Source: Escherichia coli (GTDB lineage: Bacteria > Pseudomonadota > Gammaproteobacteria > Enterobacterales > Enterobacteriaceae). Taken from it: a stretch of 64,000 nucleotides of DNA. A model generated the notes under the pieces. It saw only the letters and a program-made list of their open reading frames with translations. It ran no database searches and had not been told where the DNA came from. The stretch lies in assembly GCF_003991155.1 (NCBI RefSeq), contig NZ_CP031293.1. The stretch is one strand, 5' to 3'. Both the position numbers and the translations under genes were made by a program. The stretch's first letter is position 1. Each line of letters starts with the position of its first letter. Shown in pieces: positions 48,004-51,007 of this stretch.

Positions 48004-49254
48004 ATGGAAAGTAAAGTAGTTGTTCCGGCACAAGGCAAGAAGATCACCCTGCAAAACGGCAAACTCAACGTTCCTGAAAATCCGATTATCCCTTACATTG
48101 AAGGTGATGGAATCGGTGTAGATGTAACCCCAGCCATGCTGAAAGTGGTCGACGCTGCAGTCGAGAAAGCCTATAAAGGCGAGCGTAAAATCTCCTGGAT
48201 GGAAATTTACACCGGTGAAAAATCCACACAGGTTTACGGTCAGGATGTCTGGCTGCCTGCTGAAACCCTTGATCTGATTCGTGAATATCGCGTTGCCATT
48301 AAAGGCCCGCTGACCACTCCGGTTGGTGGCGGTATTCGCTCTCTCAACGTTGCTCTGCGCCAGGAACTGGATCTCTACATCTGCCTGCGTCCGGTACGTT
48401 ACTATCAGGGCACTCCAAGCCCGGTTAAACACCCTGAACTGACCGATATGGTTATCTTCCGTGAAAACTCGGAAGACATTTATGCGGGTATCGAATGGAA
48501 AGCAGACTCTGCCGACGCTGAGAAAGTGATTAAATTCCTGCGTGAAGAGATGGGCGTGAAGAAAATTCGCTTCCCGGAACATTGCGGTATCGGTATTAAG
48601 CCGTGTTCTGAAGAAGGCACCAAACGTCTGGTTCGTGCAGCGATCGAATACGCAATTGCTAACGATCGTGACTCTGTGACCCTGGTGCACAAAGGCAACA
48701 TCATGAAGTTCACCGAAGGCGCGTTTAAAGACTGGGGCTACCAGCTGGCGCGTGAAGAGTTTGGCGGTGAACTGATCGACGGCGGCCCGTGGCTGAAAGT
48801 TAAAAACCCGAACACCGGCAAAGAGATCGTCATTAAAGACGTGATTGCTGACGCATTCCTGCAACAGATCCTGCTGCGTCCGGCTGAATATGATGTTATC
48901 GCCTGTATGAACCTGAACGGTGACTACATTTCTGACGCCCTGGCAGCACAGGTTGGCGGTATCGGTATCGCCCCTGGCGCAAACATCGGTGACGAATGCG
49001 CCCTGTTTGAAGCCACCCACGGTACTGCGCCGAAATATGCCGGTCAGGACAAAGTAAACCCAGGCTCTATTATTCTCTCCGCTGAGATGATGTTACGCCA
49101 TATGGGTTGGACTGAAGCCGCAGACCTGATTGTTAAAGGTATGGAAGGCGCGATCAACGCGAAGACTGTAACCTATGACTTCGAACGTCTGATGGAAGGC
49201 GCTAAACTGCTGAAATGTTCAGAGTTTGGTGATGCGATCATCAAGAATATGTAA
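48004..49254 (+). CDS. icd: NADP-dependent isocitrate dehydrogenase
   Basis: 416-aa [41 protein letters not shown]... with a complete C-terminus ...[13 protein letters not shown]. Confidence 0.97.
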
Positions 49255-49277
49255 TCACTACATGTGTTAAATATTGT

Positions 49278-49309
49278 AACGGGCGTATAACACGCCCGTT
49301 GTTTTATTT
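49278..49309 (+). terminator. Rho-independent terminator of icd
   Basis: Hairpin aacgggcg-tataaca-cgcccgtt followed by GTTTTATTT, about 25 nt after the icd stop. Confidence 0.65.
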
Positions 49310-49356
49310 ATGTGGATATTATTAATATCATGTCGAGAATATTTATATGAAGACCA

Positions 49357-49680
49357 TTACTTGAGCCCATATGGGCATATTTTTATAATGCAACTATTAT
49401 GCAAACATTTATTTGTTATTTTGCTTTCTCCTGGAGGACACTCTTGACTGCTTTTGAGTAAACTCCATAAATCCTTGTTGAATGGTGCGATGTTATAAAT
49501 AGTAATAGGATATTCTTTATCCTTAAGGATAATACCATACTTAACCGGTGTAAATATACTTCCAGGAGGGAGAAATATAGTAGATTGATACCAGATGATC
49601 ATTTTCATATCACCCCATATGGCTGAAAAAGATATGCCGCATGTAGGTTGAATTACCGTGTCAATTACTATCCACTTCAT
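49357..49680 (-). CDS. iraM: Anti-adapter protein IraM (RssB inhibitor stabilising RpoS)
   Basis: 107-aa [26 protein letters not shown]... in an AT-rich segment; matches the remembered IraM sequence and size. Confidence 0.82.
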
Positions 49681-50382
49681 TTGTTATGTCTTATCCCACG
49701 GTGCTTAATATAATTCATTTGGATGTTCATTTCTTGATTTTGCATATGTGTATATTACTCCCAAAAAAATAAATTAATTAAAAATTAATGTCATTATCTA
49801 TATAAAACAAAATTTAAAGCAAGGAATCTCAATAGAGATTAAACAAAATGAGATTTAGTGAAAACATTAAATTATTCACTTCGTTTTAGATTTGTTTAGC
49901 TAAAATGTTATACATTCAAATGACTGAATATTCTGTAATTAAAACATAGCCTTTATGCTACTTTGAGCCAATTTGCTAAACATTATGGTTGGCCTTTTAA
50001 TATAACGATAATGATGAATATAAGCATGACCTGAGAATAAGGTTTCAATTTTTTAGTTATATAGGAATGGTTAAACCCGTTCCTGACTAAAATACATATA
50101 ATCGGATGATGACTAAACCAAAACACATGTGCGTTAAGTATTGAAACGGGCGTATGGCACGCCCGTTGGTTTTATAAATATGTTAACCGTTATAAAATAA
50201 CGTATAGAAAGTCAAGTGATCACATTTCAAATATCAAGTTGATAGTATTGATCTGGTGATTATTTATGGGTGGCAATAAAAAGACAGTATTACTCATCCA
50301 TATGAATAGTCTCTGCACTTTTATTTCCATTATGCTAATGCCTTACTGAATTATGAAGCATTTTTTAAGCATCCAACTTTAG

Positions 50383-50787
50383 CTAGATTAATGGTTTATT
50401 GTTTTCTACATCTTCAATATATAAAAGCGTATTATCAATGGCGTAGTAACTGCGTTTGTTATGATTAACATCAGTAACCCACCGGAAAACGCCCGCGTCT
50501 GCCAGTGTTGAACAGTATTCCCGAAATGTAGATTTTCCGCAAATATGAAGCAATGCGGCCTCTTTTATTTTAGCAGGGTTCTTGGTCGTACTAACTTTTA
50601 ACAGGTTCCTGGTTCCTCTTAATAACAAAACCGTGTCATCGTGAGTAATAATTCTGATGTTATCCGTAGCTAGATAATAAATGTAATGTGCAATACGGTG
50701 ATGTTTTAATTCTGAATAAAACCAGGAGAAGTTTTGCTCTTTTCTCACTTGCTCAAACATCTTTTGAAAAACAACGACCTGATCCAT
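50383..50787 (-). CDS. ycgX: Uncharacterised DUF1398-family protein YcgX
   Basis: 134-aa ORF, position between iraM and bluR as in K-12. Confidence 0.78.
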   Translation of the reverse strand: MDQVVVFQKMFEQVRKEQNFSWFYSELKHHRIAHYIYYLATDNIRIITHDDTVLLLRGTRNLLKVSTTKNPAKIKEAALLHICGKSTFREYCSTLADAGVFRWVTDVNHNKRSYYAIDNTLLYIEDVENNKPLI

Positions 50788-51007
50788 CAGGATAATAACC
50801 TCTTGTTAGTTGTGAGACTGCGTAGTGTGCACGATCGGTTTTACCACTTCAATCTGGTCTGTCCTTTGGCTGTGATATGTACAAAGTGTGAAAGGGGGAT
50901 TACCTGAATTCTCCCGGTGAGCATTTTGTAATGGACCAGCTCCGGTACAAACGCTGTTGTGGGTTCAGATTATAACATTCTGTCTAAGGGGCGGGATAAA
51001 GGTGAAA

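Follow-up and report, generated by a model that had tools for sequence, protein, structure and literature searches.

The icd terminator and a diverged second copy of it bracket iraM in Escherichia coli and bound its presence/absence polymorphism

Introduction

The 3′ end of icd is the classic integration hotspot of e14 and phage 21. In the stretch of Escherichia coli DNA considered here (64,000 nucleotides of contig NZ_CP031293.1, assembly GCF_003991155.1; hereafter “the window”), icd is followed by iraM, and iraM stands between two similar hairpins, the first of which is the terminator of icd. This raises the question of where the second hairpin came from, whether it is the trace of e14 or of something else, and what the pair means for the presence of iraM in the species. 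An earlier note on this DNA, made from the letters alone, had taken the pair for the footprint of an old site-specific insertion or excision and had connected it with e14. A literature search found no description of repeats flanking iraM.

Gene Order and Repeat Geometry

Positions 48900–50900 of the window are 100% identical to E. coli strain 2016C-3878, and the genes run in the order rluE (−), icd (+), iraM (−), ymgK (−), ymgL (−), ycgX (−), bluR and bluF. The icd gene (48004–49254, + strand), annotated as such in 2016C-3878, is a full-length, prophage-free open reading frame (ORF) of 416 aa for NADP-isocitrate dehydrogenase. By the ORF calls iraM (49357–49680, − strand), which encodes a 107-aa anti-adaptor of RssB and is annotated as iraM in 2016C-3878, lies 102 bp past the icd stop codon, so both the intact icd and the iraM within about 100 bp of it are as the earlier note described them. 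The very AT-rich upstream (promoter) region of iraM (49681–50124, − strand) holds the tiny ORF ymgK (49939–49983, − strand), and further right lie the small ORF ymgL (50220–50330, − strand), both taken from the annotation of 2016C-3878, and ycgX (50383–50787, − strand), a DUF1398 gene of a phage-borne protein family assigned by its ORF, by annotation and by phrog_413 (E = 1e-41). The ORF list has no integrase or phage ORF in the interval from icd to ycgX, again in agreement with the note. GC content between the two repeats is 0.22–0.35 vs about 0.51 in icd; the repeats do bracket an AT-rich iraM segment, as had been claimed, but the AT-rich zone runs past the second repeat across ymgL and ycgX at 0.30–0.40.

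The first repeat, T1 (49260–49307, + strand), is the intrinsic terminator module of icd; it starts 6 nt past the icd stop codon, co-oriented with icd, forms a hairpin at 49278–49300 with the loop ATAAC followed by GTTTTAT, and faces the convergent iraM. The second, T2 (50125–50175, + strand), is a diverged duplicate of this module with its hairpin at 50145–50167 and the loop ATGGC. The two stand in direct orientation, and the roughly 0.87 kb between them holds iraM with its upstream region and ymgK. A gapped local alignment of T1 and T2, running from ACATGTG to GTTTTAT, has 44 of 51 columns identical and scores 64, compared with a mean of 17 and a maximum of 26 for shuffled sequences, which bears out the imperfect direct repeat of about 50 bp that had been noticed by eye. 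The repeat search gave an ungapped direct repeat of 43 nt at 86% identity (49263–49305 vs 50130–50172), and a degenerate 36-nt pattern matched nowhere in the 64 kb except at T1 and T2 and gave 0 matches over 100 shuffles. The two copies share 11 identical bases, CACGCCCGTTG, at 49291–49301 and 50158–50168.

The homology has sharp boundaries: when T1 and T2 are compared, the 300 nt to their left and the 400 nt to their right score no better than shuffles. A larger tandem duplication in the window allele is rejected on this ground, and a tandem duplication of a gene together with its terminator found no backing either, no similarity being seen between IraM and YmgL.

The Repeats and the Attachment Site of e14

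The nearest explanation at hand is that T1 and T2 are attL and attR, the icd and icdC ends, of e14 or of a similar recent prophage that has since been excised. The location in the hotspot of e14 and phage 21 speaks for it, and so do the copies of the icd 3′ end found in prophages. Those of O157:H7 SS52 and E. albertii continue through the terminator as far as GTTTTAT before they diverge into an integrase gene, so that icd-targeting elements do carry the terminator module. The gene arrangement of K-12 refutes it all the same. In BW25113 the order is e14 (with pinE and mcrA), icdC, T1, iraM, ymgK, T2, ymgL and ycgX; K-12 thus still has e14; the junction of the prophage, icdC and T1 all precede iraM there, and T2 follows it on the right. 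Alignments of lysogens (K-12, O157:H7 4276 and others) break at window positions 49090–49096, and the approximate crossover zone of e14 and other icd-targeting prophages (attB, 49085–49096), where the lysogen alignment ends, is unoccupied in the window. A crossover near 49090 lies within icd, some 165 nt from its end and 170 nt ahead of T1, the icdC of K-12 begins at the equivalent point, and the published length of the icd end duplication, 163 bp, agrees with the position of the break (PMC6379469). Unlike the e14 att pair, which includes the last ~165 nt of icd, the T1/T2 repeat has no coding sequence and starts 6 nt past the stop codon. T2 is not limited to lysogens, being found in them and in prophage-free strains such as the window alike, and it carries fixed differences in every iraM-bearing strain examined, with or without a prophage. 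The e14 reading is left with practically no probability.

These observations also decide two further points of the earlier note. Its suggestion that the two copies correspond to the icd and icdC ends and to the attL/attR core of e14 fails, as icdC lies left of T1 in K-12 and T2 is separate and older. Nor is the event recent: the differences of T2 are fixed in nine strains, and an allele about 20% diverged has the same layout. The outcome that the note had named as contrary to its own idea, a conserved ancestral structure, comes close to what we find, since the structure is old and conserved, but T2 is not a remnant of icdC.

The same arrangement bears on the published position of iraM, which in K-12 “is found on the e14 prophage” (PMC4045071). 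This statement is imprecise, as iraM lies outside e14 and is also present in e14-free strains such as the window, and the literature placing it on e14 is to be corrected: iraM sits in an older islet outside the prophage. The icd hotspot thus carries stacked scars of successive integrations.

The end of icd itself shows an uneven divergence. Its last 174 nt (window 49081–49254) are 91.5–97.5%, mostly about 96%, identical to other E. coli, compared with 98.5–98.9% for the first 1077 nt, and this diverged 3′ end fits the known replacement of icd 3′ ends by phage-borne copies.

The Native Terminator and its Duplicate

Both hairpins look like terminators on the + strand. Terminator scoring gives T1 a stem of 11 pairs and T2 one of 9 pairs, each with 6 GC pairs and a T-run, and the minimum free energy structures (−21.3 kcal/mol for T1, −17.1 kcal/mol for T2) include the hairpin with a GC-rich stem of 9–10 bp. 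A strict hairpin scan with one genome per species matched E. albertii, E. whittamii, Escherichia sp. E1V33 and three Citrobacter genomes, and in each of these the module occurs as a single copy directly after icd, with other genes downstream. All are of the T1 type, beginning ACATGTGTTAAA and with the loop ATAAC. The scan returned none of E. coli K-12, E. fergusonii and E. marmotae and does not settle the polarity. Within E. coli the T1 hairpin is the same in 13 of 14 strains examined and its stem is invariant throughout. Judged by these sequence comparisons, T1 is the native-type icd terminator.

One variation in T1 deserves a remark of its own. In strains 144 and 5283, which belong to one lineage, the stem of T1 is kept and the loop is inverted, with GTGTTATAC in place of GTATAACAC (L051 of strain 144, 3179–3201; L077 of strain 5283, 578–600; equivalent to window 49278–49300), which looks like a flipped palindrome. 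Strain 5283 has no IS200C beside T1, so the inversion is not caused by this insertion sequence.

T2 differs from T1 in a constant manner. Three differences, an inserted CG, A>G and the loop (A/G)TGGC, are fixed in the nine strains examined that have iraM and the common allele. In the K-12 group and in O104:H4 the T2 stem is moreover disrupted by substitutions that are not compensated, and by structure prediction the K-12 copy no longer folds as a terminator. A copy that is always derived and whose stem is broken in K-12 and O104:H4 would be a decaying duplicate, and as part of our preferred explanation we think it probable that T2 is today largely a relic. The alternative is that the duplication is functional and that T2 is selectively kept as a working terminator or insulator, for example one shielding the iraM promoter from read-through out of ycgX-ymgL or icd. 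The T2 of the window, with its perfect 9-bp GC stem and U-run, folds well on both strands, and T2 persists across most of E. coli. Yet no + strand gene lies upstream of T2 to be terminated, iraM and ymgK being on the − strand, and on the − strand, downstream of ycgX-ymgL, the stem has no trailing U-run; the stem damage in the K-12 group and O104:H4 is not compensated and the hairpin of K-12 is lost, while T1 keeps its stem unchanged in the same strains. We hold a functional T2 to be unlikely.

Allelic States in E. coli

The population sample consisted of 5426 complete E. coli genomes, of which 3938 have iraM. In 3852 genomes icd, T1, iraM, T2 and ycgX form one uninterrupted match (state A, the type of the window), and the earlier observation that the e14 site is unoccupied here thus describes a layout shared with these genomes. 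State B, exemplified by K-12 and O157:H7 4276, differs from this layout by a prophage inside icd. State C, in 1039 of the 5426 genomes (for example SCU-125, ExPEC XM, M-17 and E11), has a single hybrid terminator and no iraM, and state C′, in strain E371, is state C with IS200C at the junction; CFT073 has also been reported to be without iraM (PMC4045071). In state D (19 genomes, for example 2013C-4282) an island of 6.5 kb lies between icd and ycgX. In a further state, some O157:H7 have a prophage at icd, and the stretch with iraM and ycgX is not found elsewhere in the genome. With at least five allelic states, the junction is the good anchor for strain-to-strain variation that the note had expected it to be; that the two repeats bound a natural presence/absence polymorphism of iraM is a fact it had missed.

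The hybrid terminator of state C has a T1-type left half through the loop, a T2-type tail and then the sequence that stands right of T2 in the window (F′, see below): CCCGTTGTTTTTATAAATATGTTAACC. A crossover between T1 and T2 within the 11 nt CACGCCCGTTG would give exactly this product. Precise deletion between the two 50-nt repeats would then be a simple structural reason why roughly one in five complete E. coli genomes, ExPEC and UPEC strains included, have no iraM. One could go further and see in the duplicated terminator a standing deletion switch for iraM, reversible by transfer, with which E. coli lineages would time and again shed one arm of RpoS stabilisation, or regain it through recombination in the flanks, while iraL takes over in ExPEC, or see in the hairpins landing and processing sites of IS200C that promote the loss of the cassette; to these ideas we give little credence.

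Some observations on individual haplotypes may be added. In O157:H7 SS52 (L004) the integrase of a lambdoid prophage stands directly after icd, and a search of the genome, which gave one matching place only, found no iraM and ycgX stretch anywhere; the downstream stretch seems to be wholly deleted. The iraM cassette of the window (49311–50124) is itself a minority haplotype, with 44 genomes at least 99% identical to it and 3661 at 90–95%, and the flanking bluR of the window is 98–99% identical to other strains. As for IS200C, strain 144 has it between CCCGTTGTTTTT and GTGCACAG behind each of the two terminators (L051, 3174–3260 and 4752–4840), and at the same position it stands after T2 only in strain 5283 (L077) and after the single terminator in E371 (L076); its target appears to be the base just past the T-run of the hairpin.

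The Divergent Allele and the Flanks of T2

State D keeps a trace that is missing from the common allele. Behind icd and T1, strain 2013C-4282 has a flank almost the same as the one that follows icd in Citrobacter, and then a gene for a hypothetical protein of 455 aa, a fragment of IS5, trkG, a homologue of iraM, a gene of the YmgB/AriR type, a region resembling ymgK, a remnant of icd, T2, ymgL and ycgX. The allele is collinear with the window in iraM (81%; the encoded homologue is 74% identical to IraM), in the iraM upstream region (72%) and from T2 onward, and its identity to the window climbs from 60% near T2 to 95–100% in bluR. These values suggest that the haplotype of state D is old or was imported from another species. 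The trkG of the island (L069, 8105–14665) is a second one and its YmgB/AriR-family gene an extra one, and the divergence of the island from the common allele, about 20%, fades within ycgX. In the 6.5-kb allele no integrase or recombinase ORF was seen, and the 455-aa protein only weakly matches PHROGs of unknown function.

Directly upstream of T2 in state D stands ATGCTATCAAGAATATGTTAA, in which the exact 13-mer ATCAAGAATATGT followed by TAA equals the last codons and the stop codon of icd, and about 40 nt further upstream a block GCTG-TGTTCAG-GTTTGGTG is collinear with icd. In a blastn comparison, 107 nt over the icd end and terminator aligned upstream of and at the state-D T2 with E = 2e-13; the longer gapped alignment of the icd remnant is by itself weakly significant (p = 0.03). 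With icd codons beside it, T2 must once have been contiguous with icd coding sequence. It descends from an icd 3′ end that was either duplicated or displaced, and the common allele has lost the coding stump.

The right flank of T2 points the same way. This sequence, F′ (50168–50222, + strand), also adjoins the single terminator of state C, and it is homologous to the native post-terminator flank of Citrobacter and of the state-D T1, with scores of 23–31 compared with 13–14.5 ± 2.4 for shuffles (p about 0.001–0.004); by blastn the state-D T1 with its flank aligns to window 50125–50197. The sequence right of T1 in the window has no similarity to this native flank (p about 0.9). A part of the flank is of interest for itself: some 45–65 nt after the icd terminator (GTTAGCNNGCTAACGGTTATCAAAATTTTATCAAAAC) are better conserved between Citrobacter and state D than icd is (L069, 8151–8215; L012, 3671–3747; L031, 8659–8700), which suggests a so far unrecognised functional element downstream of icd of which most E. 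coli would keep only a diverged copy, right of T2.

Loss or Gain of iraM

A hybrid junction can arise by deletion of iraM from the two-copy state or be the target into which iraM later came. For polarity we compared 610 nt to the right of T2 among selected iraM-bearing and iraM-less strains. Four iraM-less strains cluster tightly (99.7–100% identical to each other), and E371 is a separate iraM-less haplotype at 96.9% to this cluster. Both haplotypes are 96.2–97.5% identical to the iraM-bearing alleles, which are 95.7–98.9% identical among themselves, and state D, which bears iraM, forms the outgroup at ~80%. Contigs of a non-E. coli species (best identity to E. coli 79.5%) have bluR, a ymgK-like region, a ymgB-like gene and an iraM-like gene in this order, and the linkage of iraM to bluR is therefore old. 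Read most simply, the locus had iraM and T2 from ancestral times, and iraM was lost at least twice by deletion between T1 and T2. The polarity rests on the divergent allele as a haplotype outgroup rather than on a species tree, and the opposite direction keeps some weight.

In that opposite direction, the single-terminator state of the ExPEC and UPEC strains examined is ancestral, and a cassette of 0.87 kb with a terminator-like end of its own was inserted beside the icd terminator. The single-copy allele is indeed laid out as in Citrobacter, with icd, the terminator and the homologous flank, the hybrid junction fits either direction, and the iraM family is mobile and phage-borne. However, iraM, its upstream region and T2 are arranged alike in the ~20%-divergent allele, the iraM-less alleles fall within the diversity of the common allele as two unrelated haplotypes, and the non-E. 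coli species links iraM to bluR as well. A later insertion of iraM is rather improbable in our judgement, and we continue with loss by deletion as the preferred direction.

The Cargo Between the Repeats

IraM matches NCBIfam NF007393 over residues 1–107 with 170.2 bits (cutoff 121) and Pfam PF11183, and in the PHROGs search it falls into phrog_4407 and YcgX into phrog_413. Lambdoid prophages encode relatives of IraM at 64–71% identity, with the Q antiterminator or stx2AB on one side and nanS-p/holin on the other, and other homologues are found on plasmids or islands. The cargo of the islet is thus foreign in composition (GC 0.22–0.35 vs 0.51 in icd) and by phylogeny, its protein family being borne by phages and plasmids, though the AT-rich zone continues past T2. 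A phage origin at the DNA level was considered and rejected, as homology to phage iraM stops at the ends of the coding sequence: the iraM region of an Stx2 phage matches the window in the coding sequence only (72% over 328 nt), and flanks and hairpins are not shared.

The Stx2 phages are worth a note apart from this locus. In Stx2a phage Stx2_EH2201 (L052, 3001–3324) and in four further loci (L057–L060) the gene of a homologue 65–71% identical to IraM follows directly after stx2B, on the strand opposite to it, and lies upstream of nanS-p, and Shiga-toxin prophages may thus also influence the stability of RpoS.

Origin of the Duplicate

Putting these results together, we consider it probable that T1 is the working icd terminator, that T2 is the stump left when an old integration at icd gave the gene a second 3′ end with its terminator, and that the iraM segment is leftover cargo which can be deleted by recombination between T1 and T2. 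Elements that integrate at the 3′ end of icd bring their own copy of it, and such an event would have left two copies, one at each end of the insert. We infer that an integrase-bearing element made the original duplication, and the assignment of one copy to the host and the other to the element is put forward in the same conditional sense. After further deletions, iraM, its promoter region and ymgK (about 0.87 kb) would be what remains of a horizontally acquired, probably phage-derived cargo. The event would long predate e14 and be unrelated to it, the e14 of K-12 being stacked to the left of T1. The direct repeats of about 50 nt would then have served as substrates for precise deletion in CACGCCCGTTG, presumably by recombination between them, which removes iraM and leaves one hybrid terminator. 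The idea of an old insertion or excision footprint in the earlier note was broadly right, and its link to e14 was not.

Several findings stand against this explanation. No allele has an integrase or recombination gene, and site-specific integration is read from the form of the scar: direct repeats derived from a 3′ end and single-copy empty alleles, the features of a decayed islet, are present, but an adjoining integrase is absent from both the window and state D. The T1 of state D has a native-type flank, which is unexpected for a copy supplied by an element unless the element had captured the flank. The phage-family gene ycgX lies outside the repeat pair, and the non-E. coli species (L062/L063) has neither T2 nor ycgX, so T2 could have come with ycgX as an element-borne copy.

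A different kind of mobility would be that of a cassette bounded by its hairpins, a unit of the IS200/IS605 type or an integron-like one whose recombinase recognises them. Similar hairpins in direct orientation do bound a single-gene unit of ~0.9 kb, in strain 144 IS200C has inserted at one and the same point behind T1 and behind T2, and a GTTRRRY motif occurs in both copies. Such a unit is nevertheless found once per genome (median of 1 place) and at the icd locus only; T1 is native after icd in genera without iraM; the strict hairpin pattern has one match per Escherichia or Citrobacter genome, always immediately behind icd; the iraM homologues of phages and plasmids share the coding sequence and not the ends; and on reading the sequences, comparisons with XerCD/dif and with attC fail past a short motif. 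In a comparison with dif, TGTTAAAT matches 8 nt of the XerD arm, with mismatches in the XerC arm and spacer, and the GTTRRRY motifs have neither a properly placed inverse core nor an integrase to make an integron attC. A hairpin-bounded mobile cassette is accordingly very improbable, and the stump of an old icd 3′-end copy is kept as the preferred origin of T2.

Comparison with Known Systems

The structure is an old, conserved and ordinary scar, a new instance of a well-known kind that poses no new mechanistic question, and three known systems help to place it. With e14 and phage 21 at icd (icd-icdC in K-12) it shares the hotspot and the logic by which an element brings a replacement icd 3′ end, direct copies flank the insert and recombination removes it. 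It differs in that the repeat is a terminator module of ~50 nt and not a coding sequence of 163–165 nt, that the islet has no integrase or phage genes and is far older, as judged by the fixed differences and the ~20%-divergent sister allele, and that it lies right of the e14 junction in K-12. Lambdoid prophage morons of the IraM/IraL/RssC family (Pfam PmrD) resemble its cargo, the chromosomal IraM being 64–71% identical to them, whereas the iraM of the window is chromosomal, lies next to icd and has a long AT-rich upstream region of its own, and the DNA homology ends with the coding sequence. It also resembles islets flanked by repeats of tRNA or gene 3′ ends, decayed integrative elements, with which it shares imperfect repeats of the target 3′ end, AT-rich acquired cargo and single-copy empty alleles in the population; here, by difference, the target is the terminator of a protein gene and the cargo is one regulatory gene. 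As no recombinase is left in the iraM islet, its loss at the present day must rely on host recombination.
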